Source: Balanoglossus misakiensis
Lineage: Eukaryota; Animalia; Hemichordata
NCBI GenBank assembly: GCA_040954595.2
Contig: CM082583.2
Location: 1,374,925-1,438,924 of the forward strand
DNA: 64,000 nucleotides
Reading direction: 5' to 3'
The notes under the pieces were generated by a model, which ran no database searches, was not told where the DNA came from, and saw only the letters and a program-made list of their open reading frames with translations. Each line of letters begins with the position of its first letter. The stretch's first letter is position 1. This document shows positions 3,537 to 59,969 of this stretch, in pieces. Made by a program: the position numbers and the translations under genes.

Positions 3537-4515
3537 TGTAGGGGGGGGGGGGAAACAGAGTGGTTCAATACTACATTTATTATATATCAGCTAATTTTCG
3601 ACAATCATCTAAAATGTAAATCATTTTTTCATATTTGGATATCTGATGATGTATGAAATTTCCATTATATGTAAAAATGGTGCTGATTATAAAAAATGCA
3701 CTCTGATTTAATACAAAATTGCGTTTTATTCGTTTTTGCACCAAAAAGGTCATTTTTAGGCAAAACATTCTTTATTTTTTTAATTCGGTGACCTGATCAT
3801 ATATAAACAATTGCTTGTATGTTAAAAGTTTTTATGACTTTTAAAAGCAGTGACACTGGCGGCATTCAACACGAAAATAACAATTTTAGCCACAATTTGG
3901 TCAAAATGGTAAATTTTTGAAAATTACAAAAAAATACCTGTTTTCTACATTTTCGGAAATCTGATGGAGTATAGAATGCTCTTCGTATATATATATCGAT
4001 ACAAATTCCACAAAAATCGGCCAATTTGGCTCACTGCAGACAAAATTGCGTTTTACCAAATTTTCCTTGAAAATGTCATTTTTAGAAGAAAAAAAAAAAA
4101 AAACCTTTGTTCTTCGAATTTGGTGCCCTGATCATATATGACAGGTTGATTATATGTTAAAACTTTCGACCACTCCAAAAATGCAGAGATATTGACGGAA
4201 TTCAAGAAAAAATAGCCATTTTGGCCATATTTTGACAAAAATGGTAAATTTATAAAAAATCATAAAAAATTAACTCTTTTCTTCATTTTCGGAAATATTA
4301 TGGAGCATGAAGTGTCGTTCTCTTGTAAAAAGTGCTGCAAATTCCAGAAAAGGCGGTATAATTTGAATCACCCAAGACAAAATTACCATTTTCGACTTTT
4401 TTTCGAAATATTGTCTTTTTTTCAAAATAAATTAGAATAAATTCTTTTCTTAGTTTCAAACGGGTAGAGATACTTTCCACACGGGTTTTCTAACATTGAA
4501 TTCCCATTCATCAAC

Positions 4516-5390
4516 TCAGATTTCCTACAGCATAAGTCGGCTAAAACCCTGACACTCTAGAGCAGAAACAGTTGCACACTGGTAACGTTGAACAAGTCGA
4601 TTTTTCTACGGCCTGGCTCGGCTAAATCTCCGTCACAATATGACAGACACTAGCGTACGTTAGCAACGGTGATCAAGTCAGATTTTCTACGGCATGGCTT
4701 GGATAAAGCCCCGGCACTCTAGAGCAGAAACACGCGTACAGAGACCACGTTGATCAAGTCTGATCTCCTACGGCTTGGCTCGACTAAAACCCCGGCACAC
4801 TATGACAGACACTAGCGTTCGTTAGCAACGTTGATCAAGACAGATTTCCTACGGCATGGCTTGGCTAAAGCCCTGGCACTCTAGAGCAGAAACACGCGTA
4901 CAGAGACCACGTTGATCTACTCACATTTCCTTCGGCCTGGCACGGCTGATGCCCCGGCACTATATATAGGACACAGACTGGCGTAAGTTAACAACGTTAA
5001 TCACGTCGGGTTTCCTACGGCCTGGCTCAGCTGAAGCCCCGGCACTCTAGAGCAGAAACAGGCGTACATTGACCACGTTGATCAAGTCAGATTTCCTACG
5101 GCGTGACTCGGCTGGTGCACCGGCTCTATATGACACAGACTGGCGTAAGTTATCAACGGTGATTACGTCGGATTTCCTACGGCCTGGTTTAGCTGAAGCC
5201 CTGGCACTTTAGAGCGGAAACACGCGTACATTGACCACGATGATCAAGTCAGATCTCCTACGGCCTGGCTCGACTAAAACCCCGGCACACCATGACTGAC
5301 ACTACCGTTCGTTAGCAACGGTGATCAAGTCGGATTTCCTTCGGCCTGGCTCTGCAAAAGACCCGACACTCTAGTACAAAGACGTTGGCT
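4516..5390 (+). repeat. 81-bp subrepeat array inside satellite monomer 1 (present in every complete monomer)
   Basis: Units TCAGATTTCCTACGGC...GTTGATCAAG start at 4516, 4597, 4678, 4759, 4840 and 4921 (period 81; one 85-bp variant). Confidence 0.9.
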
Positions 5391-8300
5391 AAGTCGGGCA
5401 AACCGAAGAGGGAAAGTCACAGCTGTTCAACACTTGACATTTGTTCGGGTAGGACTGCATTATTGCCTGTCAATTTATAGAGAAAGCCCGAATTTAACCA
5501 GGGCGTTTCAAACACCGACGTTAGTTGGGGGCACGGCCTGCAGTACTGCCGGGTAAGCTGACATCGGCGTACCGCATATAATGTAGGGGGGGGGGGGAAA
5601 CAGAACGGTTCAATACTACATTTATTAGATATCAGCTAATTTTGGACAATCATCTAAAATCTAAATCATTTTTTCATATTTGGATATCTGATGATGTATG
5701 AAATTTCCATTATATGTAAAAATGGTGCTGATTTTAAAAAATGCACTCTGATTTAATACAAAATTGCGTTTTATTCGTTTTTGCACCAAAAAGGTCATTT
5801 TTAGGCAAAACATTCTTTATTTTTTTAATTCGATTACCTGATCATATATAAAGAATTGCTTGTATGTTAAAAGTTTTTATGACTTTTAAAAGCAGTGACA
5901 CTGGCGGCATTCAACACGAAAATAACAATTTTAGCCACAATTTGGTCAAAATGGTAAATTTTTGAAAATTACAAAAAATACCTGTTTTCTACATTTTCGG
6001 AAATCTGATGGAGTATAGAATGCTCTTCGTAAGTATATATCGATACAAATTCACAAAAGACCGTCTAATTTAGCTCACTGCAGACAAATTGCGTTTTACC
6101 AAATTTTCCTTGAAAATGTCATTTTTAGAAGAAAAAAAAGAAAAAAACCTTTGTTCTTCGAATTTGGTGCCCTGATCATATATGACATGTTGATTGTATG
6201 TTAAAACTTTCGATCACTCCAAAAATGCAGAGATATTGACGGAATTCAAGAAAAAATAGCCATTTTGGCCATATTTTGACAAAAATGGTAAATTTTTAAA
6301 AAATCATAAAAAATTAACTCTTTTCTTCATTTTCGGAAATATTATGGAGCATGAAGTGTCGTTCTCTTGTAAAAAGTGCTGCAAATTCCAGAAAAGGCGG
6401 TATAATTTGAATCACCCAAGACAAATTTACCATTTTCGACTTTTTTCGAAAAATTGTCTTTTTTACAAAATAAATAAGAATAAATTCTTTTCTTAGTTTC
6501 AAACGGGTAGAGATACTTTCCACACGGGTTTTCTAACATTGAATTCCCGTTCATCAGCTCAGATTTCCTACAGCATTAGTCGGCTAAAACCCTGACACTC
6601 TAGAGCAGAAACAGTTGTACACTGGTAACGTTGAACAAGTCGATTTTTCTACGGCCTGGCTCGGCAAAATCTCCGTCACAATATGACAGACACTAGCGTA
6701 CGATAGCAACGGTGATCAAGTCAGATTTTCTACGGCATGGCTTGGATAAAGCCCCGGCACTCTAGAGCAGAAACACGCGTACAAAGACCACGTTGATCTA
6801 CTCACATTTCCTTCGGCCTGGCACGGCTGATGCCCCGGCACTATATATAGGACACAGGCTGGCGTAAGTTAACAACGGTAATCACGTCGGGTTTCCTACG
6901 GCCTGGCTCAGCTGAAGCCCCGGCACTCTAGAGCAGAAACACGCGTACAGAGACCACGTTGATCAAGTCTGATCTCCTACGGCTTGGCTCGACTAAAACC
7001 CCGGCACACTATGACAGACACTAGTGTTCGTTAGCAACGTTGATCAAGTCGGGTTTCCTACGGCCTGGCTCAGCTGAAGCCCCGGCACTCTAGAGCAGAA
7101 ACAGGCGTACATTGATCACGTTGATCAAATCAGATTTCCTACGGCGTGACTCGGCTGGTGCACCGGCTCTTTATGACACAGACTGGCGTAAGTTATCAAC
7201 GGTGATTACGTCAGATATCCTACGGCCTGGTTTAGCTGAAGCCCCGGCACTTTAGAGCGGAAACACGCGTACATTGACCACGATGATCAAGTCAGATCTC
7301 CTACGGCCTGGCTCGACTAAAACCCCGGCACACCATGACAGACACTAGCGTTCGTTAGCAACGGTGATCAAGTCGGATTTCCTTCGGCCTGGCTCTGCAA
7401 AAGATCCGACACTCTAGTGCAAAGACGTTGGCTAAGTCGGGCAAACCGAAGAGGGAAAGTCACAGCGGGTCAACACTCGACATTTGTTCGGGTAGGACTG
7501 CATTATTACCTGTCAATTTATAGAGAAAGCCCGAATTTAACCAGGGCGTTTCAAACACCGGCGTTAGTTGGGGGCACGGCCTGCAGTACTGCCGGGTAAG
7601 CTGACATCGCCGTACCGCATATTATGTAGGGGGGGGGGGGAAACAGAACGGTTCAATACTAAATTTATTAGAAATCAGCTAATTTTGGACAATCATCTAA
7701 AATCTAAATCATTTTTTCATATTTGGATATCTGATGATGTATGAAATTTCCATTATATGTAAAAATGGTGCTGATTATAAAAAATGCACTCTGAATGAGC
7801 TGATTTAATACAAAATTGCGTTTTATTCGTTTTTGCACCAAAAAGGTCATTTTTAGGCAAAACATTCTTTATTTTTTTTAATTCGATTACCTGATCATAT
7901 ATAAAGAATTGCTTGTATGTTAAAAGTTTTTATGACTTTTAAAAGCAGTGACACTGGCGGCATTCAACACGAAAATACCAATTTTAGCCACAATTTGGTC
8001 AAATAGGTAAATTTTTGAAAATTACAAAAAATACCTGTTTTGTATATTTTCGGCAATCTGATGGAGTATAGAATGCTCTTCGTATGTTTATATCGATACA
8101 AATTCCAAAAAAGACCGTCTAATTTGGCTCACTGCAGACAAAATTGCGTTTTACCAAATTTTCCTTGAAAATGTTATTTTTAGAAAAAAAAATAAAAAAA
8201 ACCTTTGTTCTTCGAATTTGGTGCCCTGATCATATATGACATGTTGATTGTATGTTAAAACTCTCGACCACTCCAAAAATGCAGAGATATTGACGGAATT

Positions 8301-9267
8301 CAAGAAAAAATAGCCATTTTGGCCATATTTTGACAAAAATGGTAAATTTTTAAAAAATCATAAAAAATAAACTCTTTTCTTCATTTTCGGAAATATTATG
8401 GAGCATGATATGTCGTTCTCTTGTAAAAAGTGCTGCAAATTCCAGAAAAGGCGGTATAATTTGAATCACCCAAGACAAAATTACCATTTTCGACTTTTTT
8501 TCGAAAAATTGTCTTTTTTACAAAATAAATAAGAATAAATTCTTTTCTTAGTTTCAAACGGGTAGAGATACTTTCCACACGGGTTTTCTAACATTGAATT
8601 CGCGTTCATCAACTCAGATTTCCTACAGCATAAGTCGGCTAAAATCCTGACACTCTAGAGCAGAAACAGTTGCACACTGGTAACGTTGAACAAGTCGATT
8701 TTTCTACGGCCTGGCTCGGCTAAATCTCCGTCACAATATGACAGACACTAGCGTACGTTAGCAACGTTGATCAAGTCAGATTTCCTACGGCCTGGTTTAG
8801 CTGAAGCCCCGGCACTTTAGAGCGGAAACACGCGTACAGAGACCACGTTGATCAAGTCTGATCTCCTACGGCTTGGCTCGACTAAAATCCCGGCACACTA
8901 TGACAGACACTAGCGTTCGTTAGCAACGTTGATCAAGTCAGATTTCCTACGGCCTGGTTTAGCTGAAGCCCCGGCACTTTAGAGCGGAAACACGCGTACA
9001 TTGACCACGATGATCAAGTCAGATCTCCTACGGCCTGGCTCGACTAAAACCCCGGCACACCATGACAGACACTAGCGTTCGTTAGCAACGGTGATCAAGT
9101 CGGATTTCCTTCGGCCTGGCTCTGCAAAAGACCCGACACTCTAGTACAAAGACGTCGGCTAAGTCGGGCAAACCGAAGAGGGAAAGTCACAGCGGGTCAA
9201 CACTCGACATTTGTTCGGGTAGGACTGCATTATTGCCTGTCAATTTATAGAGAAAGCCCGAATTTAA

Positions 9268-10063
9268 GATGGGTCCCTGGGATCTTTTTGCTCGTTGCTA
9301 TGGGCCTTTGCAGGACATTACACCCCGATTTGGACTAAGCCGTTTTCAGAGTCTAACAAGGGGCTGGTAACTAGTTGAAAATCTGCACGATTGTGAGCGC
9401 GCGCCCCCTGACGCCATTGATATGCAAATTAGCTAGGTCAAATTTCAAAAGCCTAAGGCTTTTTATTCCGTGACCTCAAAAACGAACTTGAGACGTATTC
9501 ATTAGTTGCTTGAACCAGGGAAGATCGTGACGGATTTTGTTTTCGAATATTATCGTTGTATCCTACGATTTCAGCATACCCGTACCACACCTGAAAAAGT
9601 CATCGATTTTGGGTGTTTTTGGACGCACTCTTCCACCGGTATCGCTTCTTAGCACGACGAAAACCGAAAAAAACGATCCGTCACACTGTGCGGAAGTGCG
9701 TTCTCAACAAGCAGGTCAAATTTGACTGGCGTACGTGGCCTATGAAAAAAGCCTTAGGGATTTTCGTGAACGGTACAAAATCTCTGTGTACAAAACATTG
9801 GATTTTAAGCGTTCGATCCAGTTACTGTGGTTACAGGACGCGCACGCTATCGCTGACCGCTGCTTTGCCGTATTAGCGTGGCGGCCTATGGCCGGGCGGT
9901 AGCTGCCGTAAACATACTCGGACAGGGGGTGTGCACACAATCGTGTGTATTTTTAACTAGAAACAAGCCCCTTGTCGGACGTTCATAACGGTTTCGATCA
10001 AAATTGAGTGTAGTGTCCTATAAAGGCCCATAGCAACGGGTAAAAAGATCCCAGGGACACATC
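9268..10063. mobile_element. 796-bp non-autonomous TIR element (MITE), Kolobok-type, copy 1
   Basis: TTAA TSD at 9264-9267 and 10064-10067; the empty site GAATTTAACCAGG is seen in other monomers. ~42-bp imperfect TIR GATGGGTCCCTGGGATCTTTTTG.../...AAAAAGATCCCAGGGACACATC. Purine-purine termini plus TTAA fit Kolobok rather than piggyBac. Confidence 0.88.
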
Positions 10064-11740
10064 TTAACCAGGGCGTTTCAAACACCGACGTTAGTTGGGG
10101 GCACGGCCTGCAGTACTGCCGGGTAAGCTGACATCGGCGTACCGCATATAATGTATGGGGGGGGGGGGGAGAAACAGAACGGTTCAATACTACATTTATT
10201 AGATATCAGCTAATTTTGGACAATCATCTAAATCATTTTTTCATATTTGGATATCTGATGATGTATGAAATTTCCATTATATGTAAAAATGGTGCTGATT
10301 ATAAAAAATGCACTCTGATTTAATACAAAATTTCGTTTTATTCGTTTTTGCACCAAAAAGGTCATTTTTAGGCAAAACATTCTTTATTTTATTAATTCGG
10401 TGACCTGATCATATATAAACAATTGCTTGTATGTTAAAAGTGTTTATGACTTTTAAAAGCAGTGACACTGGCGGCATTTAACACGAAAATAACAATTTTA
10501 GCCACAATTTGGTCAAAATGGTAAATTTTTGAAAATTACAAAAAATACCTTTTTCTACATTTTCGGAAATCTGATGGAGTATAGAATGCTCTTCGTATGT
10601 AAATATCGATACAAATTCCACAAAAGACAGTCTAATTTGGCTCACTGCAGACAAAATTGCATGTTATCAAATTTTGCTTGAAAACGTCATTTTTAGAAAA
10701 AAAAATAAAAAAACCTTTGTTCTTCGAATTTGGTGCCCTGATCATATATGACATGTTGATTGTATGTTAAAACTTTCGACCACTCCAAAAATGTAGAGAT
10801 AGTGACGAAATTCAAGAAAAAATAGCCATTTTGGCCATATTTTGTCAAAAATGGTAAATTTTTAAAAAATCATAAAAAATTAATTCTTTTCTTCATTTTC
10901 GGAAATATTATGGAGCATGAAGTGTCGTTCTCTTGTAAAAAGTGCTGCAAATTCCAGAAAAGGCGGTATAATTTGAATCACCCAAGACAAAATTACCATT
11001 TTCGACTTTTTTCGAAAAATTGTCTTTTTTACAAAATAAATAAGAATAAATTCTTTTCTTAGTTTCAAACGGGTAGAGATACTTTCCACACGGGTTTTCT
11101 AACATTGAATTCCCGTTCATCAGCTCAGATTTCCTACAGCATTAGTCGGCTAAAACCCTGACACTCTAGAGCAGAAACAGTTGCACACTGGTAACGTTGA
11201 ACAAGTCGATTTTTCTACGGCCTGGCTCGTCTAAATCTCCGTCACAATATGACAGACACTAGCGTACGTTAGCAACGATGATCAAGTCAGATTTTCTACG
11301 GCAGGGCTTGGATAAAGCCCCGGCACTCTAGAGCAGAAAAACGCGTACAGAGACCACGTTGATCAAGTCTGATCTCCTACGGCTTGGCTCGACTAAAACC
11401 CCGGCACACTATGACAGACACTAGCGTTCGTTAGCAACGTTGATCAAGTCAGTTTTCCTACGGCATGGCTTGGCTAAAGCCCTGGCACTCTAGAGCAGAA
11501 ACACGCGTACAGAGACCACGTTGATCTACTAACATTTCCTTTGGCCTGGCACGGCTGATGCCCTGGCACTATATATCGGACACAGACTGGCGTAAGTTAA
11601 CAACGGTAATCACATCGGGTTTCCTACGGCCTGGCTCAGCTGAAGCCCCGGCACTCTAGAGCAGAAACAGGCGTACATTGACCACGTTGATCAAGTCAGA
11701 TTTCCTACGGCGTGACTCGGCTGGTGCACCGGCTCTATAT

Positions 11741-11767
11741 CACTCGCCCCGATCGCCAAATATGGAA
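11741..11767 (+). repeat. Left TIR of the 8.1-kb transposon
   Basis: Exact reverse complement of 19846-19872; both ends also carry a subterminal TGAATATTCAT. Confidence 0.95.
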
Positions 11768-11862
11768 TAATGAGATCGTGAATATTCATATTAAGTTTCG
11801 CAGTATTAGCCAATCAGTACGTCGAATTTTGGGGTCAGGGGTTACGAAGTGGCGGTACTTCT

Positions 11863-13466
11863 ACAGTCGCATCGATGACCCATATTAGGAGTTGCTTATT
11901 AGCATAAAAATTAACATATCATTAATATGTAGAACGCGATCTGACCAATGACGCGCCCGGAAAGCCGCGCCTCTCACCCATTTCCCCGCCCTTTGTTAAG
12001 AAAATCACGACTTTTTCTTTTCAAATGTAAATTTTGGGGTCAAATACGCTGTTTGGGGATATCCCGTCAATTGAAAATAAGAAAGTACGAGTCAAACTTG
12101 CTACCAGGTCAATAAGAAAATTTTTCACCAGTGCTTTTGTGAAATATTTAATTTTGATTTTGGCGTCTACGCTATTTTTTGAGGATTTCGCCTGAAAGAT
12201 GGCGACCTGGTATAGACAGACCGATGCATGAAATGAAGTGACGGTGGTCACCTGACTGGTATCATTGCAACCAAAACACACGACCTTTCTTCAGGGCCAT
12301 ACATCATTCAAAAGACAAGTACCAGTAGACAGTTTTTACATTTATCTATTGATTTTAGTTATGCGACTGAATTGAATATTTTGCATCACACTGAAACTCG
12401 TCACGGAAAAAAACGGGACTCAACCGTACCCTTTGACCTATGACTTTTGATCTTCATACTGTCAGTCTGTCGATCGCTGGTAATAATTGTTTTCGTGATG
12501 GAATAAGAATTTGTCTACGTTTTCGACAATCAAACATGAGGGTTACTCTTTGAATAAAGGTAGGGAACATGACGTGACTTGGTGTATGAATTGACGACCT
12601 TGACGGATAAGGGCAAGTGGCAGTAAAACAGCGAACTGACCAACTGGAAACCGTACAGGCTGGCTGCGCTGGTGTTCAAACAATATTTTCGTCCTCAGTC
12701 GACGACGTCCCTCCGCAATAAAGAGTGACTAACGTGTTTCGACATAGTGTTTATTAGTCTGTAAGTCGCAACTCATTACTTTGCATTACTACATGAAGGG
12801 GGATTATTATTTCCAGCCCAGCCGCTCAAAGTTTAAGTTGGCTCACAACAAAATTAAAACGGTAGAGCTTATTATGATCGTGGCGAAATGACAACCTTTG
12901 ATGTTACGTAGGACGAAATAAACAATCATTTGTCCTGGCTGTAGCTACAATCATGACTGTCAGCCTGTTTGTGTGGCGACGTACATGCGGTGAGGGTGGG
13001 CAGCACGCAGTTACATGCTGAACAGTAGAGGGGAGTAGTATCGGCAAAATCAAACTTTGCACAACTATAACGCAACCACATCGTCTAGAATAAAGACAAC
13101 GGGCGTTCCTTTGGCATCTCTTAGTACCTCCATGGTTTTAGGAAATATGCGGCCATCATCTGTCTAGCGAGGGGCGAGGACACGGGCGGGCGGCACCCAT
13201 TTCAAGTGCCTGTATACTTCCCACGCGTCCGCATCATATTTCAACGGCGTTGTTTACATGTAACTGTCTAACAGTATTCTAGTACATGTATGTCTTTTGG
13301 GGGTGCATGTCCTTAAAAGGTCGCTTTTTGCTTTGGTTGCTGTGCGCGGTGATATAGACAAGTCAGGTGATCACCGTCACTAGGAAACTTTGGCTCTCGA
13401 TGAACGCCTTCAATCTACATGCTCTGTCTAATAACGCCATCTTTCATGGGTCATCGATGCGACTGT
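11863..13466. mobile_element. Possible nested non-coding TIR element or duplicated cis-module inside the 8.1-kb transposon
   Basis: Perfect 21-bp inverted repeat ACAGTCGCATCGATGACCCAT (11863-11883 and 13446-13466) with TCT immediately outside both ends; no long ORF inside. Confidence 0.5.
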
Positions 13467-13743
13467 TCTATGCATGATATGTACGTAGAACGCGACCCAG
13501 CCAATCAAGTGACCTACGCTCTCATAAATTACATGGTCATACCAAAGTGGGCGGTCTTATGTCATCAAAGTTTTTCATTGACAACATTTCAACCCAGTTA
13601 CTCGAAAAATTACTCTGAAGTTCACCGATCCTTTCTTACGTAAGAACAATTTATTTTTGCGTCTTCCGGATAAAATCCTCCCTACGCTGCCCTGTAGTCC
13701 CGATCCCATGCCCAGCCGGCCCCTGCCGTGACATGATCGGCGC

Positions 13744-13752
13744 GGCGCGAAA
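13744..13752 (-). promoter_or_regulatory. E2F consensus site upstream of the HIRAN gene
   Basis: GGCGCGAAA (TTTCGCGCC on minus), about 110 bp before ATG 13861; a CCAAT (13501) and a GGGCGG box (~13549) lie further upstream. Confidence 0.5.
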
Positions 13753-13860
13753 TTACCTGTCGTCAGAAAAATCTGACACAATGATCTGCCGTCAGCTCAG
13801 TCGCTGAGTCACCAGTGTACTACACAGTCACCAGAGAACGCCAACGTACGTCAAATCAAA

Positions 13861-14259
13861 ATGCCGAAAGTTATTATTCACGGAGTGAATGCCGTGGGAA
13901 TGGCTCACTACAGAGGAGATTTGACAGTCGGGGAAATATACTATTTGCGCCGCGAGCATGACAATCCTCACGATAGAAATGCCATCGCAATAGTGGATTC
14001 GTCGGAGCCCGGGCCGCGGACCCAAATATTTGGCCATTTGAAGCGTCGCGCCGCACGTTTAATCGCAAGAGTAATCGATGCGGGGCTTGCCTCAAATGGT
14101 GTTTATTATTTGAAGCCTAAGGCCCGCGGTTTCTTCTATTCACGACGTAGCGGTGTCGTTCAGTGGTGCAACGTAGGGTTTCTTTTGAAGAAAAGTGATG
14201 TGGATCGAGCTAGTGAAGTCCTGTTAGGCAACGGATTTAAAGTTACGTGCTCGGACTAA
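13861..14259 (+). CDS. Stand-alone HIRAN-domain protein (132 aa), intronless transposon cargo
   Basis: Intact ORF with TCAAAATG start context. VGMAHY..LTVGEIYYLRREHDNPHDRNAIAIV..IFGHLKRRAARLIA matches the HIRAN pattern (G..Y; L.REP.NP.D.NAI.V; GY/H.P...A..LA). Confidence 0.88.
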   Translation: MPKVIIHGVNAVGMAHYRGDLTVGEIYYLRREHDNPHDRNAIAIVDSSEPGPRTQIFGHLKRRAARLIARVIDAGLASNGVYYLKPKARGFFYSRRSGVVQWCNVGFLLKKSDVDRASEVLLGNGFKVTCSD

Positions 14260-14291
14260 TCGTTTTCTTCCATTCAGTTGGAAAACACAAC

Positions 14292-14333
14292 AAAAACGGC
14301 CCTTTTAAGGGCCACCAAATCCTCCAGAAAGAG
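14292..14333 (+). terminator. Replication-dependent histone-type 3' processing signal (stem-loop plus HDE)
   Basis: AAAAAC-GGCCCT-TTTA-AGGGCC-ACCAAA (stem-loop 14298-14313, 38 nt after the HIRAN stop) followed by purine-rich CAGAAAGAG at 14325-14333. Matches the metazoan consensus AACGGCYCTTTTMAGRGCCACCA plus a CAAGAAAGA-type HDE. Confidence 0.9.
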
Positions 14334-15431
14334 ATATGCCATTAGGCGTTACACGAGAATCTATTATAATGATTATATTCTTGTCACACGGTCACTCTGT
14401 GTGGAGTGACCTGGTTGTCAATGTCATTGTCGTATGTTTTGATTGTTTTGTAGATTGCACATAAGGTCGTTGACCTTTGTACCATGCACTCCAGCGTATC
14501 AGTTTGAGCACACGAGCAGTTCCTATATTTTTGGTTGCAAATACAATTTATCTCACAGTATATTAATTTTAAGGAGCCAATTGTAGAAATCACACTTGTA
14601 ATATTTCACATATTACATATGATCACCCATTTGTTTTAAATTGTCATTTAATTGCTAAGTCATTATCATGTTACACATTTCATGTTATTCTCATTCAGTT
14701 CTCCAGTGTCACTCACATCTGTTATCAGTCTCACACACAATTAATCCATATGAATGCAAGTGTCAACCATGTGTCTTGTCTATTCTGTCAAGTCCACAGT
14801 CCTCACCATTGTATTGTACATGTCACAGTGTCATTGTTACTACCCCAGTCACATACACCATTTTGTTTGTCCATTTGTAATTTATTGAAGAACAATAATT
14901 CAGCCAAAAATTATTTCTAATTAATCATGTTTCACACAATATCATTAACAATGTGTTCAATTAAGCTGTATATATTTATAACACTGAGAAGTCTAACGTC
15001 ATCTTTGTATGGAACTCAACGTTTAATATTAAATAAATATGTATTTCTACATTACACTTGTATATATTATCTATTACATTATATATTGGAAATTTCATAT
15101 TTACACATGACACACATATTTACAATATTTCTGTTAAACTGGATTTTGATAATTAAAGGAAATGTAATATTTATGTTTATATATAAATTATTAATATATT
15201 AGTATTGTAAATATTATAATATTTCTAACACTAGATTGAATGTTATTTTCCAAGCTTGAACAGGATTATTATGTATGATATTCATATTTGTCTTTAACCC
15301 CTGGGATGTTTAGATTTGTCTATCATGGAATGTGTGCAGAGCTGACTTTTCTACACTGATAGGGTGTGTAAAATGCCAAAGAACTTATCCAACACTGCAA
15401 CAGTGGATGATTCTGTAATATTGTGAAGATT

Positions 15432-18400
15432 CTATTCTATTGTAGCAATGTACTCCCTTACATCACTTAAAAGTTTAAGTAACCCATCTTTCTTATGTTC
15501 TTTTCTTAACTTGATGACAAACTTTTCTTTGTCAAAATTGCTTGGTACAACAGACAAAAGAGTGTTGATTTCATTTGTAATTTGCAGATTTGTTTTGTTC
15601 TGATCTAATTCAAAGTATTCCCTTTCTGTTGGTGTTACGAAGACTGGTAGAGGGGTTGGTCTTTTTGATGGGTATATTCCTGGCAAGAGGTATTCAGTTA
15701 TCAAATCATGTTGGCGCTGCTTTGCTATGATTGGCAAACTTAACAGTTCAAAATCTAATGGTTTGCCACAAACAGACAACAGCTTTCTGCCAAAAGTGGG
15801 CTTACAATAACTATTGCGGCGGAGTAGGATATGAAATTCTGTCAGTTCATTTTTGTATGTTGGGTATGTTCTTTGGCGTTTTTCAACATGGGGAAGTGAC
15901 AGTGTAGTTGTGACAGCATTCCTCAAAGCCACCAATGTGTCATAATTGGCTATAACCCGTTCCCAAGTTTTATAGTTTGGTTCTCCTCCAATCCATTTTT
16001 TAACTTCTTTGTTATATTCTTCAAGGACAAAATCTGTTCCTTGATGAGCTGTGGGTGAACCAGACCTTGATATGCTTTCATACCTCTGAAGAATCTGATT
16101 AAGGTCATAAGGGTATCTAATCCTGTCAAATTCATCCCAGCATTCGATGACCTGATATTTAGGGTGGTTTCTAGTAAACCATACAGGCATGAATAACCTC
16201 CTGCCTGTTCTGATCAAACAGCTGTTGTTACTCCTTATACCTTTCCTGAACAATTTCAACCCTAAACAGTGAGGTATAAGTTGATTCACAATCAACTGAA
16301 AGGTGTCATCATTACTGGTGTTAGCAAATGCCCACTCCAAAAACCTTTGAAATGATATTGACTCAGTATTATCAGTATCTTTGACATAGTTATACACAAG
16401 TTCATCAATTATACCATCACAGAATTTAAGGAAATTGTCAAATGCCTGATGGTGGTCCCCACAGCTTTTGAAGAACATGAGAGATTTCTCTGTCTTGTAT
16501 CCTTGTGTTTTAGCAAACTCTTCATACAACACATCCCAATATAATCCAATCAATGCTTTGAGCATATTCATTAATTTCCTCATGACCCAACCCAGTCCTC
16601 AGAAGTACCCAGTCAAATTCCCCTGAACTCTCAGCAATAATTTTTCTGACCAACCCTGATGGTAATCCATCACAACGAACAATTGTCCACTCCCTTTTAC
16701 CGTCAGGATTATAATATTTAATCCCTGCATGTCTACCAATTGATCTAAGTACTTCCTTAACAGCCTCAATACTACTTGGATTGACAAACACAGGAGCAAT
16801 CATTTGGATTTGAGGGATATTACATCTCTCTTTTGTGTTTTTTTCAATGGTGCTGTCACTTTCAAGAGAAGGGAAACTGTTATGGAAAACAAGGCTGCGA
16901 GATGTTGATTTTGACTTCTTTTCAACCCTTGTATTTAAGCTATCCCCTTTTTCCTGTGCCTTTCTTTCTTTTGCTATCCATGTACCACATTTTTCACATT
17001 TTTTCTTTGATTTCAGATTTCTATAATTGCATTGAGGTACAGGGCAAATTTTATACTCTTCTTGTTCTTTCCTTTTCTCCAATTCATTTTCAATGGAATT
17101 AATGTCATCTGTTTTGTTCAATCTTTCAGTTAAATATTTATCAAATTCTCCATGGTATGCCGATATCATGTCTGTTGTAAGTTCACACAAACTCAAAGCT
17201 TCTTCATCACTAGGAACAGGAAAATTACTTGGCTTATAGTTCTCATCCTCTTGAATAGTTGAAAGGGGATCTAATTGTACACATATTGAATTAGTTAAAA
17301 TCTCCAATACTTGTTTATTTTGATTACGTGACAGTCTTGTCTTCATTAATCTTTGCTCATTATCAAAACAATACTCTAACAAACCCTGTGGTGTATTACT
17401 CTCTGATTTCACTCCCATTTCTGTTAACATTGAATAAATAGTATCATAACTCCCCCCAGGACAAATATGACCAACAATATCAATTACACTCTCACTTTGA
17501 CAAATTGAATATATAACAGCTTCCACTGCACACACAAAATCACTGATATAATTTAGGTTTCTAGCATTATAAATGGACTCAACAGCAAGAAATTTCTTAA
17601 CTTTGTGTTTTTCGTTTGATTTTTTTGATACTGGCGATTTGTGGTGAGTAAATCCATTCACAGCAGCCACAACCACAGGATTTCTATTATTAACCAATTC
17701 ATCTATATTTATATTAATTTGATTTTCAAGACTTCTAGATTGCTTATTTTGTTGCATCTCCACAGAATGGTCAAAAATAGCCTCACTCTCAAGCTCTGAG
17801 ATCTTTTTAATTGCATCTATTCTTTTTCTTTGTGTATCAAACTGATTTAGAATGGATGTTTTGAGTTCAAGTCTTTCTTTATTTGAACTTTCTATCTCCC
17901 TCTTCAGCCTCCTTATTTCCTTATCTTGTTCTTCTATCCTCTTTATTAAGTCAGCCATTCCACTGCACATGTGTTGAGGTGGATCCTAAGCAAAACACAT
18001 CAAAGTAACCTTTGGTTAGATCCAAATACAACAGACAGACAGACAGACTAGGCCAGATTGACACACAGGCAGAGCAAGAGACGGACAGCAAACATACTGA
18101 AAAAAATAGCAACATATTACAGCTACTTATACTATCCCATTTGATTCTAAATGTTTGCTGAAAGTATAGCTATTTATAAGTAGAAAATGTGTGTGGGTAT
18201 AATAGGTGTATTTATTTGCTACCGACTGAACAAGATATCAAATATTTTTGCACAACACTTTTTACCTGCACATGAATTGCTCTAGTTTACCTAAACACCT
18301 GAGCTATTTGAATGCGACTCACAGGCAGCATTTTACTGGATAACAAAAACCTCTCACTGACTACTGGGTTTGTCCAGCCCAACTTCCTTAGCTTGGCTCA

Positions 18401-19498
18401 ATCCAAAGGGTTACAGTCTAGCAATTGTATGTGAACTAGGTAATCATTTCAGTGTCAGCATACCTGTAGATTCTGCACTGAAGGTTCATATCCACTACCA
18501 GTAACATCAGCAGACTCTTGATGTTCCTATTATATTGAAATAAATTTAATTAAAAATTTCGAAAATATATTCATGAAATTAATGCAAAAAATTGCAGCTA
18601 TTGGGGCTTTAAGCACTTAGGGGTGGACTTGGCGCTTTGCTGTAAAATTACCTATGCATGCTATCACAGGCGTCGGATTCACATTGCTGTGATTGCTTGA
18701 TTGAACCTGTAAATAAATAAACCTTATTTACAGGTTGAATCAAGCGATCACAGCAGTGTGACTCCGACGCCTGTGCATGTTATGATAGTGCCAGACAAAG
18801 AAGGCGAGAGCGGCTGCTGACAGACTTATTATTTGGCCCGGCCTGTACGAAAATATGTGGGACGATTTTAATTGTGTTGTTGGGACGTCGACCTCGGCCG
18901 CTCGGTCCCTGGATCTGGAGGGACCGTGTAATTAGGATGTCGGGTGCAGGCGAGACTTTCCCTGCTTGTTTCTTACTATCGTAGACCCTTTTTGACAATA
19001 ACACAGAATGAAAGTTAATGTGTAAGGCCATGAAGGAAACAAACGTACGCAAGATAAAATCACTGCCTAAGATCGTATCTAGCGTTGTTTACATTGTTGA
19101 CAGGTCATCGGTCAAACACCGAAGGTCAACTTATCGCCCTCACGAGAGAAAAGAAACAGTTGTTTTATTTTTCGGATACGTACCTGCACTGTTCGCCCGT
19201 GTCCCAGAGTTCCCGCATCACCAAAACGGGTAAATTCCCTCTTCGTCGGGGCTATTTCGATGCATTTCCTGCAGATTGTTGCGGTGCGGTGTACGCCAAG
19301 TCTAGAAAAAATGTTCCGGTACTCCTTTCTTACGTACTTGGCGATTTCTGGTCGTGTATTTGTCCCCCGGTTCCATTTTTCATGGAACGGGTTTTTACAT
19401 TGCGGTGTTTTTTGCGTGACAACTAAAATTATTACTGTGATTAAAATAAAAGTGATTGCAAACGCTGAAATAAAATAGACAACTTCCCTGGTGTGCAT
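15432..19498 (-). CDS. Spliced putative DDE-type transposase (~975 aa if repaired), one frameshift; superfamily unassigned, motif order resembles Academ/DUF6589-type proteins
   Basis: Exons 19498-19184 (105 aa, CKNPFH..ICRKC), 18526-18464 (21 aa) and 17985-15432, all GT-AG, phase 0 and in frame. Coiled coil; YCFDNEQ; zinc ribbon CPVPQC..CEKC; VNPSS; VRCDGLP; LRTGLGHEE; RNHPKYQ; QGTDFVLEEYNKEVK. Frameshift near 16571-16574 splits ORFs 16522-17970 and 15432-16583. Confidence 0.78.
18665..18775. repeat. 111-bp foldback (52-bp arms) in transposase intron 1
   Basis: CACAGGCGTCGGA...GTAAATAA / TTATTTACAGG...GACGCCTGTG with 4 mismatches; flanked by CATGCTAT / CATGTTAT (possible 8-bp TSD). Confidence 0.85.
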
Positions 19499-19845
19499 GT
19501 TTGCTCAAAGCTAGCTGGTCGAGGGTTCGAAAATCTGTTTGAAAAGTGTCGTCTGCTCACTGACGATCGGTCGTCAAGGGCGACGTATGACGTCAATCGG
19601 GAATGCACAGCGCTGATCGTGAGTTACCTGACAGCTCCAGTATAGTATATTTTACTTTTGCATTTTCATAATTTTCTGAAGAAGACTGTAATTTTCACAG
19701 TTTATTTATTACGATGATGAAAAAAAATTGCGAGGCTGCTGTGTTCATCACATGGGTGCAATGAAATTGCTAATACGATTGGCTCCATTTCTACTGTGTC
19801 CATAGAAACGTTCTATAATGAATATTCATTTATTCTAATTAATGT

Positions 19846-19872
19846 TTCCATATTTGGCGATCGGGGCGAGTG
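19846..19872 (-). repeat. Right TIR of the 8.1-kb transposon
   Basis: TTCCATATTTGGCGATCGGGGCGAGTG followed by the TATAT TSD. Confidence 0.95.
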
Positions 19873-22800
19873 TATATGACACAGACTGGCGTAAGTTATC
19901 AACGGTGATTACGTCGGATTTCCTACGGCCTGGTTTAGCTGAAGCCCCGGCACTTTAGAGCGGAAACACGCGTACATTGACCACGATGATCAAGTCAGAT
20001 CTCCTACGGCCTGGATCGACTAAAACCCCGGCACACCATGACAGACACTAGCGTTCGTTAGCAACGGTGATCAAGTCGGATTTCCTTCGGCCTGGCTCTG
20101 CAAAAGACCCGACACTCTAGTACAAAGACGTTGGCTAAGTCGGGCAAACCGAAGAGGGAAAGTCACAGCGGGTCAACACTCGACATTTGTTCGGTTAGGA
20201 CTGCATTATTGCTTGTCAATTTATAGAGAAAGCCCGAATTAAACCAGGGCGTTTCAAACACCGACGTTAGTTGGGGGCACGGCCTGCAGTACTGCCGGGT
20301 AAGCTGACATCGGCGTACCGCATATAATGTAGGGGGGGGGGGGTGGAACGGTACAATACTACACTTATTAGATATCAGCTAATTTTGGACAATCATCTAA
20401 AATCTAAATTATTTGGATATCTGATGATGTATGAAATTTCCATTATATGTAAAAATGGTGCTGATTATAAAAAATGCACTCTGAATGAGCTGATTTAATA
20501 CAAAATTGCGTTTTATTCGTTTTTGCACCAAAAAGGTCATTTTTAGGCAAAACATTCTTTATTTTTTTAATTTGGTGACCTGATCATATATAAACAATTG
20601 CTTTTATGTTAAAAGTTTTTATGACTTTTAAAAGCAGTGACACTGGCGGCATTCAACACGAAAAATACCAATTTTAGCCACAATTTGGTCAAAATAGTAA
20701 ATTTTTGAAAATTACAAAAAAATACCTGTTTTCTACATTTTCGGAAATCTGATGGAGTATAGAATGCTCTTCGTATGTATATATCCATACAAATTCCACA
20801 AAAGACCGTCTAATTTGGCTCACTGCAGACAAAATTGCGTTTTACCAAATTTTCCTTGAAAATGTCATTTTTAGAAAAAAAAAATAAAAAAAAACCTTTG
20901 TTCTTCGAATTTGATGCCCTGATCATATATGACATGTTGATTGTATGTTAAAACTTTCGACCACTCCAAATATGCAGAGATATTGACGGAATTCAAGAAA
21001 AAATAGCCATTTTGGCCATATTTTGACAAAAATGGTAAATTTTTAAAAAATCATAAAAAATTAATTCTCTTCTTCATTTACGGAAATATTATGGAGCATG
21101 AAGTGTCGTTCTCTTGTAAAAAGTACTGCAAATTCCAGAAAAGGCGGTATAATGTGAATTACCCAAGACAAAATTACCATTTTCGACTTTTTTTCGAAAA
21201 ATTGTGTTTTTTACAAAATAAATAAGAATAAATTCTTTTCTTAGTTTCAAACGGGTAGAGATACTTTCCACACGGGTTTTCTAACATTGAATTCCCGTTC
21301 ATCAACTCAGATTTCCTACAGCATAAGTGGGCTAAAACCCTGACACTCTAGAGCAGAAACAGTTGCACACTGGTAACGTTGAACAAGTCGATTTTTCTAC
21401 GGCCTGGCTCGGCTAAATCTCCGTCACAATATGACAGACACTAGCATACGTTAGCAACGGTGATCAAGTCAGATTTTCTACGGCATGGCTTGGATAAAGC
21501 CCCGGCACTCTAGAGCAGAAACACGCGTACAGAGACCACGTTGATCAAGTCTGATCTCCTACGGCTTGGCTCGACTAAATCCCCGGCACACTATGACAGA
21601 CCCTAGCGTTCGTTAGCAACGTTGATCAAGTCAGATTTCCTACGGCATGGCTTGGCTAAAGCCCTGGCACTCTAGAGCAGAAACACGCGTACAGAGACCA
21701 CGTTGATCTACTCACATTTCCTTTGGCCTGGCACGGCTGATGCCCCGGCACTCTATAGCAGAAACAGGCGTACATTGACCACGTTGATCAAGTCAGATTT
21801 CCTACGGCGTGACTCGGCTTGTGCACCGGCTCTATATGACACAGACTGGCGTAAGTTATCAACGGTGATTACGTCGGATTTCCTTCGGCCTGGTTTAGCT
21901 GAAGCCCCGGCACTTTAGAGCGGAAACACGCGTACATTGACCACGATGATCAAGTCAGATCTCCTACGGCCTGGATCGACTAAAACCCCGGCACACCATG
22001 ACAGACACTAGCGTTCGTTAGCAACGGTGATCAAGTCGGATTTCCTTCGGCCTGGCTCTGCAAAAGACCCGACACTCTAGTACAAAGACGTTGGCTAAGT
22101 CGGGCAAACCGAAGAGGGAAAGTCACAGCGGGTCAACACTCGACATTTGTTCGGTTAGGACTGCATTATTGCTTGTCAATTTATAGAGAAAGCCCGAATT
22201 AAACCAGGGCGTTTCAAACAATGACGTTAGTTGGGGGCACGGCCTGCAGTACTGCCGGGTAAGCTGACATCGGCGTACCGCATATAATGTAGGGGGGGGG
22301 GGGGGGGTGGAACGGTTCAATTCTACATTTATTAGATATCAGCTAATTTTAGACAATCATCTAAAATCTAAATTATTTGGATATCTGATGATGTATGAAA
22401 TTTCCATTATATGTAAAAATGGTGCTGATTATAAATAATGCACTCTGATTTAATACAAAATTGCGTTTTATTCGTTTTTGCACCAAAAAGGTCATTTTTA
22501 GGCAAAACATTCTTTATTTTTTTAATTCGGTGACCTGATCATATATAAACAATTGCTTGTATGTTAAAAGTTTTTATGACTTTTAAAAGCAGTGACACTG
22601 GCGGCATTCAATACGAAAATAACAATTTTATCCACAATTTGGTCAAAATGGTAAATTTTTGAAAATTTCAAAAAATACCTGTTTTCTACATTTTCGGAAA
22701 TCTGATGGAGTATATAATGCTCTTCGTATGTATATATCGATACAAATTCCACAAAAGACCGTCTAATTTGTCTCACTGCAGACAAAATTGCGTTTTACCA

Positions 22801-25370: not shown

Positions 25371-27190
25371 CAAACCGAAGAGGGAAAGTCACAGCGGGTC
25401 AACACTCGACATTTGTTCGAGTAGGACTGCATTATTGCCTGTCAATTTATAGAGAAAGCCCGAATTTAACCAGGGCGTTTCAAACACCGACGTTAGTTGG
25501 GGGAACGGCCTGCAGTACTGCCGGGTAAGCTGACATCGGCGTACCGCATATAATGTAGGGGGGGGGGGAAAGAACGGTTCAATACTACATTTATTAGATA
25601 TCAGCTAATTTTGGACAATCATCTAAAATCTAAATCATTTTTTCATATTTGGATATCTGATGATGTATGAAATTTCCATTATATGTAAAAATGGTGCTGA
25701 TTATAAAAAATGCACTCTGAATGAGCTGATTTAATACAAAATTGCGTTGTATTCGTTTTTGCACCAAAAAGGTCATTTTTAGGCAAAACATTCTTTATTT
25801 TTTTAATTCGGTGACCTGATCATATATAAACAATTGCTTGTATGTTAAAAGTTTTTATGACTTTTAAAAGCAGTGACACTGGCGGCATTCAACACGAAAA
25901 TAACAATTTTAGCCACAATTTGGTCAAAATGGTAATTTTTTGAAAATTACAAAAAATACCTGTTTTCTACATTTTCGGAAATCTGATGGAGTATAGAATG
26001 TTCTTCGTATGTATATATCGATACAAATTCCAAAAAGACAGTCTAATATGGCTCACTGCAGACAAAATTGCGTTTTACCAAATTTTCCTTGAAAATGTCA
26101 TTTTTAGAAAAATAAATAAAAAAACCTTTGTTCTTCGAATTTGGTGCCCTGTTCATATATGACATGTTGATTGTATGTTAAAACTTTCGACCACTCCAAA
26201 ATTGCAGAGATATTGACGGAATTCAAGAAAAAATAGCCATTTTGGCCATATTTTGACAAAAATGGTAAATTTTTAAAAAATCATAAAAAATAAACTCTTT
26301 TCTTCATTTTCGGAAATATTATGGAGCATGAAGTGTCGTTCTCTTGTAAAAAGTGCTGCAAATTCCAGAAAAGGCGGTATAATTTGAATCACCCAAGACA
26401 AAATTACCATTTTCGACTTTTTTTCGAAAAATTGTCTTTTTTACAAAATAAATAAGAATAAATTCTTTTCTTAGTTTCAAACGGGTAGAGATACTTTCCA
26501 CACGGGTTTTCTAACATTGAATTCGCGTTCATCAACTCAGATTTCCTACAGCATAAGTCGGCTAAAATCCTGACACTCTAGAGCAGAAACAGTTGCACAC
26601 TGGTAACGTTGAACAAGTCGATTTTTCTACGGCCTGGCTCGGCTAAATCTCCGTCACAATATGACAGACACTAGCGTACGTTAGCAACGGTGATCAAGTC
26701 AGATTTTCTACGGCATGGCTTGGCTAAAGCCCTGGCAGTCTAGAGCAGAAACACGCGTACAGAGACCACGTTGATCAAGTCTGATCTCCTACGGCTTGGC
26801 TCGACTAAAATCCCGGCACACTATGACAGACACTAGCGTTCGTTAGCAACGTTGATCAAGTCAGATTTCCTACGGCCTGGTTTAGCTGAAGCCCCGGCAC
26901 TTTAGAGCGGAAACACGCGTACATTGACCACGATGATCAAGTCAGATCTCCTACGGCCTGGCTCGACTAAAACCCCGGCACACCATGACAGACACTAGCG
27001 TTCGTTAGCAACGGTGATCAAGTCGGATTTCCTTCGGCCTGGCTCTGCAAAAGACCCGACACTCTAGTACAAAGACGTTGGCTAAGTCGGGCAAACCGAA
27101 GAGGGAAAGTCACAGCGGGTCAACACTCGACATTTGTTCGGGTAGGACTGCATTATTGCCTGTCAATTTATAGAGAAAGCCCGAATTTAA

Positions 27191-27986
27191 GATGGGTCCC
27201 TGGGATCTTTTTGCTCGTTGCTATGGGCCTTTGCAGGACATTACACCCCGATTTGGACTAAGCCGTTTTCAGAGTCTAACAAGGGGCTGGTTACTAGTTG
27301 AAAATCTGCACGATTGTGAGCGCGCGCCCCCTGACGCCATTGATATGCAAATTAGCTAGGTCAAATTTCAAAAGCCTAAGGCTTTTTATTCCGTGACCTC
27401 AAAAACGAACTTGAGACGTATTCATTAGTTGCTTGAACCAGGGAAGATCGTGACGGATTTTGTTTTCGAATATTATCGTTGTATCCTACGATTTCAGCAT
27501 ACCCGTACCACACCTGAAAAAGTCATCGATTTTGGGTGCTTTTGGACGCACTCTTCCACCGGTATCGCTTCTTAGCACGACGAAAACCGAAAAAAACGAT
27601 CCGTCACACTGTGCGGAAGTGCGTTCTCAACAAGCAGGTCAAATTTGACTGGCGTACGTGGCCTATGAAAAAAGCCTTAGGGATTTTCGTGAACGGTACA
27701 AAATCTCTGTGTACAAAACATTGGATTTTAAGAGTTCGATCCAGTTACTGTGGTTACAGGACGCGCACGCTATCGCTGACCGCTGCTTTGCCGTATTAGC
27801 GTGGCGGCCTATGGCCGGGCGGTAGCTGCCGTAAACATACTCGGACAGGGGGTGTGCACACAATCGTGTGTATTTTTAACTAGATACAAGCCCCTTGTCG
27901 GACGTTCATAACGGTTTCGATCAAAATTGAGTGTAGTGTCCTATAAAGGCCCATAGCAACGGGCAAAAAGATCCCAGGGACACATC
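27191..27986. mobile_element. 796-bp Kolobok-type MITE, copy 2
   Basis: Near-identical to 9268-10063 and at the same TTAA of the monomer (27187-27190 and 27987-27990). Confidence 0.88.
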
Positions 27987-28884
27987 TTAACCAGGGCGTT
28001 TCAAACACCGACGTTAGTTGGGGGCACGGCCTGCAGTACTGCCGGGTAAGCTGACATCGGCGTACCGCATATAATGTATGGGGGGGGGGGGAGGGAGAAA
28101 CAGAACAGTTCAATACTACATTTATTATATATCAGCTAATTTTGGACAATCATCTAAATCATTTTTTCATATTTGGATATCTGATGATGTATGAAATTTC
28201 CATTATATGTAAAAATGGTGCTGATTATAAAAAATGCACTCTGATTTAATACAAAATTTCGTTTTATTCGTTTTTGCACCAAAAAGGTCATTTTTAGGCA
28301 AAACATTCTTTATTTTATTAATTCGGTGACCTGATCATATATAAACAATTGCTTGTATGTTAAAAGTGTTTATGACTTTTAAAAGCAGTGACACTGGCGG
28401 CATTTAACACGAAAATAACAATTTTAGCCACAATTTGGTCAAAATGGTAAATTTTTGAAAATTACAAAAAATACCTTTTTCTACATTTTCGGAAATCTGA
28501 TGGAGTATAGAATGCTCTTCGTATGTAAATATCGATACAAATTCCACTGCAGACAAAATTGCATGTTATCAAATTTTGCTTGAAAATGTCATTTTTAGAA
28601 AAAAAAATAAAAAAACCTTTGTTCTTCGAATTTGGTGCCCTGATCATATATGACATGTTGATTGTATGTTAAAACTTTCGACCACTCCAAAAATGTAGAG
28701 ATAGTGACGAAATTCAAGAAAAAATAGCCATTTTGGCCATATTTTGTCAAAAATGGTAAATATTAAAAAATCATCAAAAAATTAACTCTTTTCTTCATTT
28801 TCGGAAATATTATGGAGCATGAAGTGTCGTTCTCTTGTAAAAAGTGCTGCAAATTCCAGAAAAGGCGGTATAATTTGAATCACC

Positions 28885-52895: not shown

Positions 52896-52969
52896 ATCCT
52901 CATGGTGTAATGGTTAACACACTTGTCACTTTGTGATAAGAGATCCAGGTTCGATTCCTGGTGGGGATG
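52896..52969 (+). tRNA. tRNA-Gln-like gene or pseudogene with a 2-nt-expanded anticodon arm
   Basis: Acceptor ATCCTCA/TGGGGAT; D arm GTGT-AATGGTTA-ACAC (A box TGGTGTAATGG); T arm CCAGG-TTCGATT-CCTGG (B box). Anticodon arm CTTGTCACTTTGTGATAAG is 19 nt instead of 17. Confidence 0.65.
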
Positions 52970-58620: not shown

Positions 58621-59039
58621 CTTATTTCTTTCATCAACACTTTCTAACCGTTAACCCGCTGTACCTCCGCATGTCTCCACAAGAGCTAGGAGCTCAGAAT
58701 CGGATGAACGAGACAAGCGGTCTCTCACGTTTAGTAACCGTAACACCGTTAAAGGTAGGTTTTCATTGATTCTAATAAGTCTCCGTTCAACAACATTTCA
58801 AAGATTCTCCATAACCCAGTAGTTGCCACTGTGCTTCAATGAAATATTTCCTTTCAAACTTGCAAATGGTAACCGAATCTCAAATCGCAAATCTTTCCAT
58901 TTTTAATAACGAAGTCGGATGCCGCAATCACCAACTCACTTTTTTATCGGACTCCATCATTCTAATACTTTACTTCAATGTTCAAAAATTGTGTAAAACA
59001 ATATCCACTCTCAATCTATATTTCAGGTTTAACGGCGTT

Positions 59040-59932: not shown

Positions 59933-59969
59933 GTGAGACATAAAATACTGTTCCTGATGCTCCGTGAGA

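Follow-up and report, generated by a model that had tools for sequence, protein, structure and literature searches.

A transposon-borne HIRAN gene with a histone-type 3′ processing signal in the hemichordate Balanoglossus misakiensis

Why would a gene carried by a DNA transposon end in the 3′ processing signal of a replication-dependent histone gene? Such signals consist of a stem-loop bound by SLBP and a histone downstream element (HDE), and the histone pre-mRNA is described as cut 4–5 nt after the SLBP-bound stem-loop once U7 pairs with the HDE, with intronless genes and with processing factors that gather at histone locus bodies (PMC10730174). Histone mRNAs are apparently the sole mRNA clients of SLBP/U7 processing (PMC5054213). 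In the 64,000-nt stretch of the Balanoglossus misakiensis genome analysed here (hereafter the window), the original prediction had nonetheless placed a 132-aa HIRAN ORF inside a transposon bounded by terminal inverted repeats (TIRs) and a target-site duplication (TSD), with a stem-loop and HDE behind it.

The element spans positions 11741–19872 (8.1 kb) and carries two convergent genes with ~1.2 kb between them. Its boundaries, and an insertion nested within it, are as follows:

11736–11740: left 5-bp TSD (TATAT), within a unit of an 81-bp satellite whose empty sites carry one TATAT
11741–11767, + strand: left TIR, 27 bp, perfect, starting CAC
11864–13465: nested non-autonomous element with CAG..CTG ends and a TSD of TTCTA, missing from other copies
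19846–19872, − strand: right TIR, 27 bp, the two ends reading CAC..GTG
19873–19877: right 5-bp TSD (TATAT; direct repeat)

Six empty-site-like satellite units occur in the window, four of them with a single TATAT, and with its TIRs, TSD, empty site and further copies the element has the properties of a TIR DNA transposon. It is hosted by a large array of the 81-bp satellite, arranged in ~2-kb higher-order blocks (4400–11700 and from 19900 onwards), which also holds other inverted-repeat inserts at 9264–10067 and 27187–27990. The nested element is seen at high depth, with a 5-bp TSD and CAGTCGC ends that resemble the CACTCGC ends of the element hosting it, and some contigs skip its inner part (12195–13164). 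Two look-alikes of a stem-loop plus AAAAGAC, lying in the arms of the nested element at 12283–12320 (+) and 13285–13323 (−), were rejected as decayed and without a Histone3 score. Elsewhere in the window we noted host gene exons with Sushi and CUB domains and a lectin-like exon with no Pfam match (35232–42945, −), a tRNA-like sequence (52896–52969, +; Rfam 51.4 bits), and ORFs of 238, 412 and 147 aa with no Pfam match beside long inverted repeats of 90–98% identity (58815–61275, +; 56334–56746 and 58624–59036), which are probably another mobile element.

Contigs covering the element came from two sequencing runs (X1 and X2) of one sample. The main form in these contigs lacks the nested insert and is ~0.3% divergent from the window, one 3053-nt contig showing 10 substitutions and a gap of 4 nt; in the insert-free copies the contig joint passes from 11858 to 13466, skipping 1607 nt with five shared letters. 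Letters private to the window are absent from the sample contigs, which suggests that the window holds one of many young copies (contig depth not being a copy number).

The leftward of the two coding directions belongs to a putative transposase gene:

15432–17985, − strand: putative large transposase exon, DUF6589-like, CpG observed/expected (o/e) 0.18, read here as two ORFs with 4 extra nt near 16570
18464–18526, − strand: predicted in-frame transposase exon of 63 nt (AG/GT ends, open frame)
19184–19498, − strand: predicted first transposase exon with a Cys/His cluster, its start codon uncertain
14886–14891 (approximate), − strand: AATAAA on the transposase coding strand, probably the poly(A) signal of that gene

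Other copies lack the frame-breaking 4 nt near 16570. Evidence for the DUF6589 assignment is weak, one piece reaching an Atlas value of 0.95 with a low recognition score of 1150 and the other piece 0.80, and the Pfam DUF6589 match (E 0.023) falls below the cut-off. A word-indexed search of a transposase piece against longer proteins confirmed none of 2093 candidates, the viral_contigs collection confirmed none of nine, and the PDB held no meaningful match; the literature searched returned only unrelated work on DUF6589. This domain is presumably linked to Academ transposons, which reportedly carry RecQ helicase and XPG nuclease helper genes. That group shares with the window element a DUF6589-like transposase and a second DNA-processing gene, whereas here the helper is HIRAN, the ends are CAC..GTG with a 5-bp TSD, and there is no helicase or nuclease ORF: none of the four ORFs scanned had a Pfam match to RecQ helicase or XPG nuclease, and the element has no other long ORF. 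The hAT5 group was considered on the strength of its 5-bp TSD, but a hAT Pfam domain is absent from both large ORFs. The ends and TSD of the element agree with the definition of the CMCT clade (EnSpm, Mirage, Chapaev and Transib), which is based on CA..TG ends and a TSD of 2–5 bp (PMC12730594). The ORFs of the element matched neither RAG1 nor Transib in Pfam or the PDB, and by eye no C(2)C motif follows the presumed second D, the catalytic residues being guessed. The predicted intron 1 of the transposase gene also contains a 111-nt hairpin with 52-nt arms of 92% identity (18665–18775) and an AT-rich 58-nt motif common to ~30 contigs (18555–18612), both probably MITE remnants.

Facing the transposase gene is the gene that prompted the question:

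13861–14259, + strand: stand-alone HIRAN gene, one ORF of 132 aa, CpG-rich (o/e 1.42)
13745–13752, − strand: weak E2F-like site, noted post hoc, ~110 nt before the HIRAN start codon

The ORF matches Pfam HIRAN (PF08797) at E 3e-13 and 49.8 bits (cut-off 24.7), which, with the 27-bp TIRs and the TATAT TSD, confirms the first part of the original prediction. Its AlphaFold model (pLDDT 95.6) finds HLTF HIRAN domains as its best PDB matches (TM 0.70, to 6kcs; 23% identity), and the Pfam profile, the PDB profile and the fold together place it in the HIRAN domain family. It shares with the HLTF/Rad5 and the bacterial and phage HIRAN domains a conserved NPxD loop; pocket position N35 is kept in 49 of 50 aligned sequences and D38 in 47 of 50. 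It differs from HLTF in standing alone and in having histidines (His16 and His37) aligned to both of the stacking tyrosines, Y72 and Y93, described for HLTF HIRAN (PMC4666394). The same source describes HIRAN as recognising the 3′ ends of ssDNA, and the window protein is predicted to bind free DNA 3′ ends. The domain apparently originated in phage replication systems (PMC3417536). Among 1.84 billion representatives the protein had 97 matches, mostly stand-alone and about 120–135 aa long, with Mytilus the source of both named cluster members, and a word-indexed protein search with the ORF confirmed none of 25 candidates. The window HIRAN belongs to a separate animal clade of ~125–130-aa proteins found beside transposases.

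Behind this gene lie the two parts of the histone-type signal:

14298–14313, + strand: histone 3′ stem-loop, 6-bp stem and 4-nt loop (Rfam, folding and pattern scan), with predicted cleavage after about 14317–14318
14325–14334, + strand: HDE, its AAAGAG core at 14328–14333 starting 14 nt after the stem

The 16-nt stem-loop begins 38 nt past the HIRAN stop and is followed directly by ACCAA. A scan with Rfam Histone3 (RF00032), proposed along with the original prediction, returned a match above the gathering cut-off at 14293–14337 (37.3 bits against 34; E 2.7e-07), the sole Histone3 match in the window. The claimed stem-loop and HDE, in sense orientation and at histone spacing, are real. The canonical stem-loop pattern likewise has a single match in the window, against none in 100 shuffles. 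Among 2.9 million viral contigs a 19-nt version of it had one match, a chance one within a long ORF of unrelated kind, and the hairpin is the minimum-energy fold of its sequence (z −2.42; 3 of 200 shuffles folded as well). Likeness to the histone mRNA 3′ end extends to the AAAGA core, which could pair with UCUUU, a conserved box of U7 (PMC5054213). The ORF is also single, with no splice acceptor before its ATG (an intron in the 5′ UTR would be compatible with this), and no sense A(A/T)TAAA occurs for 770 nt after HIRAN, the first being ATTAAA at 15028 and a further one lying at 15152. The missing acceptor and the CpG-richness of the gene suggest that its likeness to histone genes reaches beyond the 3′ end. 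The difference is that a replication-dependent histone gene encodes a histone, whereas this ORF is HIRAN and belongs to a mobile element with no histone cluster around it in the window; as had been claimed, no histone ORF is nearby, in that none of a set of short motifs of the core histones (not H1) appeared in the six frames of the window. By every sequence test available, then, the 3′ end of the HIRAN gene is one expected to work like that of a replication-dependent histone mRNA.

A signal of this kind might be a histone 3′ end captured by the element and without function, the HIRAN message being silent or polyadenylated further downstream. Multicopy histone genes would be ready donors. The relatives of the window gene bear on this reading. 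Among the close relatives, P0002 (58% identical to the window HIRAN) reads through the stop position, and its tail matches the translated stem-loop, spacer and HDE (14294–14338) in exact register. In a codon-distance test over 58,062 stretches of 158 proteins, the P0002 tail required a minimum of 7 changes in 45 nt, with 14 for the next best; this test was used in place of an earlier, weak whole-tail chance test (score 63; 0 of 2000 shuffles, with an unrelated window stretch scoring 62). The sole P0002 change within the hairpin falls on the variable last loop base, and its last residues, R-E-L-P, are those encoded by the downstream consensus of other stem-loop loci in the sample. Of the 4608 codon choices for its RPFSGP peptide, eight give a canonical stem-loop, and the peptide is therefore compatible with the hairpin and does not force it. 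The spacer from stop to stem would be 16 nt in P0002 against 38 in the window, so that register was kept in the block although its flank had altered.

In a quick tree of 71 rows, the window gene and P0002 fall in a four-member clade (SH-aLRT 99) on opposite sides of its basal split, separated by a path of 0.8 changes per site; the stem-loop/HDE block would therefore predate that split. The proteins P0001 and P0003, which do not extend past the stop, are uninformative on the signal, the tails of the sister-clade proteins P0004 and P0140 read like AATAAA repeats, and an alignment scan for the DNA of the three closest relatives confirmed none of 59 candidates in genome_contigs and none of 30 in viral_contigs. 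On the read-through of one relative's protein, P0002, the signal was very probably present in the ancestor of the subclade and retained. The original prediction had held that a recent one-off capture would count against it; with the block kept in the same register by a 58%-identical relative across the basal split, the signal does not look like one.

Other contigs of the same sample match the window from 14282, 14284, 14291 or 14294 only as far as 14334, with no similarity continuing in either flank and with nine loose ends at 14334 in X1 and nine in X2. In two of these contigs a Lys-Lys-stop precedes the stem by 33 and 27 nt, the arrangement expected of host histone genes; from 30 letters, we tentatively read them as H1/H2A ends. 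After AGA, the window HDE departs from the ACTACC common to these other loci, and its pairing with U7 would therefore be shorter. Drift of the HDE away from the downstream consensus is what a functionless captured end might show, as is the absence of the signal from most relatives (0 of 9 distant loci, below). Against this, the similarity is confined to the functional block and takes in neither histone coding sequence nor further flank; orientation and spacing are correct; and the block also follows the HIRAN gene of P0002, from which the window gene is separated by 0.8 changes per site, more than would let neutral DNA preserve an unbroken stem in the same register. A functionless relic is accordingly the least probable of the readings that we weighed, and a quite improbable one.

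The same sample contains a diverged subfamily of the element, with 68 substitutions in 566 nt. Of its 37 listed substitutions between 13930 and 14150, 20 affect the third position of a codon (p 0.007); none of the listed rows places a gap in the HIRAN ORF, so the HIRAN gene looks to be under purifying selection. Its 32 gap letters lie at 14280, 14292, 14340–14380 and 14428, with none in 14293–14339, a pattern that is suggestive around the signal and not significant alone; the substitution list lacks 33 rows, those inside the stem-loop/HDE block among them. One X2 contig, a decayed family variant, skips 39 nt that include the HIRAN stop (14223–14261).

Beyond the subclade, 10 of 78 candidate HIRAN loci were confirmed, one of which (L010, a 13-residue match) was spurious and dropped, leaving nine; one of these nine, with a stop inside the ORF (L009), was excluded from counts made on the eight with an intact motif. 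None of the nine had a Histone3 match and none a near-canonical hairpin. All eight loci with an intact motif have a splice acceptor ahead of the start codon, a pyrimidine tract and AG lying within 3 nt of the ATG, and AATAAA within 35 nt after the stop in five of the eight. In five loci (L004–L008), HIRAN stands directly before the HTH_psq exons of pogo-type transposases (four of the five above the Pfam cut-off, with DDE_1 in L006), a superfamily to which the window element does not belong; CpG o/e is 0.14–0.29 in these five, 0.78–1.01 in L001–L003 and 1.42 in the window gene. HIRAN helpers therefore work without the histone signal, given its absence from all nine loci and the AATAAA-like tails of the sister-clade proteins, and their occurrence beside pogo-type and non-pogo transposases marks HIRAN as a helper common to unrelated transposon types. 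Several features of these loci were also noted: HIRAN before pogo exons (L004–L008, noted together with P0062 and P0072) has an acceptor of its own and mostly AATAAA, and so resembles an alternative terminal exon placed within intron 1; in L003 a sequence that by eye looks like a transposase C-terminus, without a Pfam match, comes ahead of HIRAN; in L001 (941–1100) a truncated HIRAN ORF precedes a stretch that by eye resembles tRNA boxes and a SINE; and two long hairpins lie upstream of the broken gene of L009 (5038–5170 and 5989–6069). The original prediction had counted absence of the signal from homologous elements as evidence against it; outside the subclade that absence is what we found, and inside it P0002 carries the block. 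The simplest history appears to be that one subclade switched from a spliced, polyadenylated helper gene to a histone-like one.

What the switch brought need not be timing. A functional, U7-processed signal could serve as a compact, intron-independent terminator that stops transcription 55–60 nt after the stop codon, prevents an antisense run into the message of the transposase gene, and perhaps lets the HIRAN message escape surveillance linked to poly(A). The convergent arrangement of the two genes fits such a role: the first HIRAN ATTAAA (15028) lies beyond the transposase AATAAA (near 14886), and a polyadenylated HIRAN message would therefore overlap the transposase message, while the co-oriented relatives in pogo-type elements use AATAAA. 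However, AATAAA would serve equally well as a terminator and is much more readily gained where DNA is AT-rich, the lack of a 5′ acceptor and the high CpG content of the gene suggest that more than the terminator was remodelled along histone lines, and P0002 is known from protein alone, with convergence seen in the window element. We regard a benefit of this kind, separate from timing, as unlikely, though it is the strongest of the alternatives.

The reading that we favour is that the element likely borrows the histone pathway, such that its HIRAN helper is made while DNA is copied. For a cut-and-paste element, copy number rises when it moves while DNA is replicated or when the donor gap is repaired from a template. 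Under this reading, the host U7/SLBP machinery would cut the HIRAN pre-mRNA near 14317–14318 with no poly(A) added, and such processing in vivo is probable. With a stem-loop end in place of poly(A), the level and translation of the mRNA would follow SLBP, and the message would be abundant mainly in replicating cells; histone-type mRNAs are described as following SLBP in S phase and as also being stored and used in eggs and early embryos. That the benefit lies in coupling to S phase or to the egg and cleavage stages is somewhat better supported than its opposite. The HIRAN protein would then occupy 3′-OH ends at the donor break or fork and compete with host HLTF/Rad5 and with end joining, so that refilling with the sister chromatid as template, or else fork insertion, would be favoured and the element would gain copies through a replication-timed helper. 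By analogy with TnsE of Tn7, it is conceivable, at slightly less than an even chance, that HIRAN caps 3′-OH ends and competes with these host pathways in this way. Taken whole, a two-gene transposon with a U7/SLBP-cut, non-polyadenylated HIRAN mRNA whose product binds 3′ ends and aids copy gain is, on balance, the best explanation. Against it, histone factors concentrate at histone locus bodies, and the window contains no histone gene. The E2F-like site upstream of HIRAN would fit an S-phase role but is weak, matches to it showing no enrichment in the window (4 against 5.5 expected).

Heritable transposition requires expression in the germline or early embryo, and a related reading gives this the leading part: the message would have a dual 3′ end, or would be stored and translated in eggs, with S-phase control secondary. 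The ATTAAA sites at 15028 and 15152 could provide the second end. This overlaps the favoured explanation, which itself allows cleavage-stage use, and as a separate account we judge it improbable.

A bolder form of the favoured explanation, which we hold only tentatively, is that this lineage rebuilt HIRAN as a histone mimic, intronless and with stem-loop and HDE, which would be a non-histone client of SLBP/U7, and that a 3′-end binder made solely in replication or cleavage divisions steers transposition or donor repair to forks, as a eukaryotic counterpart of TnsE. TnsE of Tn7 is a transposon-encoded 3′-end binder that links transposition to replication; the analogy is functional only, protein and element being unrelated and no shared sequence expected. 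U7 has been linked to mobile elements in another way, through the repression of HERV1/LTR12, which like the window element carries U7-complementary sequence; there, HDE-like motifs mediate transcriptional repression, and the abstract mentions no stem-loop or 3′ processing, whereas in the window a bipartite signal ends a coding gene (10.1101/2023.08.25.554787). Among the matches listed, this is the nearest case. The literature searched, which covered sources other than Repbase Reports, most subscription journals and supplements, held no transposon with a histone-type stem-loop on HIRAN and no non-histone mRNA with a stem-loop processed through SLBP; a Repbase entry for the element family may exist. 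Among the matches listed for HIRAN with transposase, none concerned such elements by title or the start of the abstract, and HIRAN does not occur in the main text of a survey of the pogo superfamily (Gao et al. 2020, PMC7386202).

At least two unrelated transposon types carry this small HIRAN gene, on which we found no paper in the literature searched. If the explanation given here is true, a coding gene of a transposon breaks the histone-only rule of SLBP/U7 processing, as that rule stands in PMC5054213, with the signal kept over ~40% protein divergence. It would provide a natural test of U7 processing away from the histone locus body, and it would mean that a cut-and-paste element ties itself to replication, the stage at which copies are gained.
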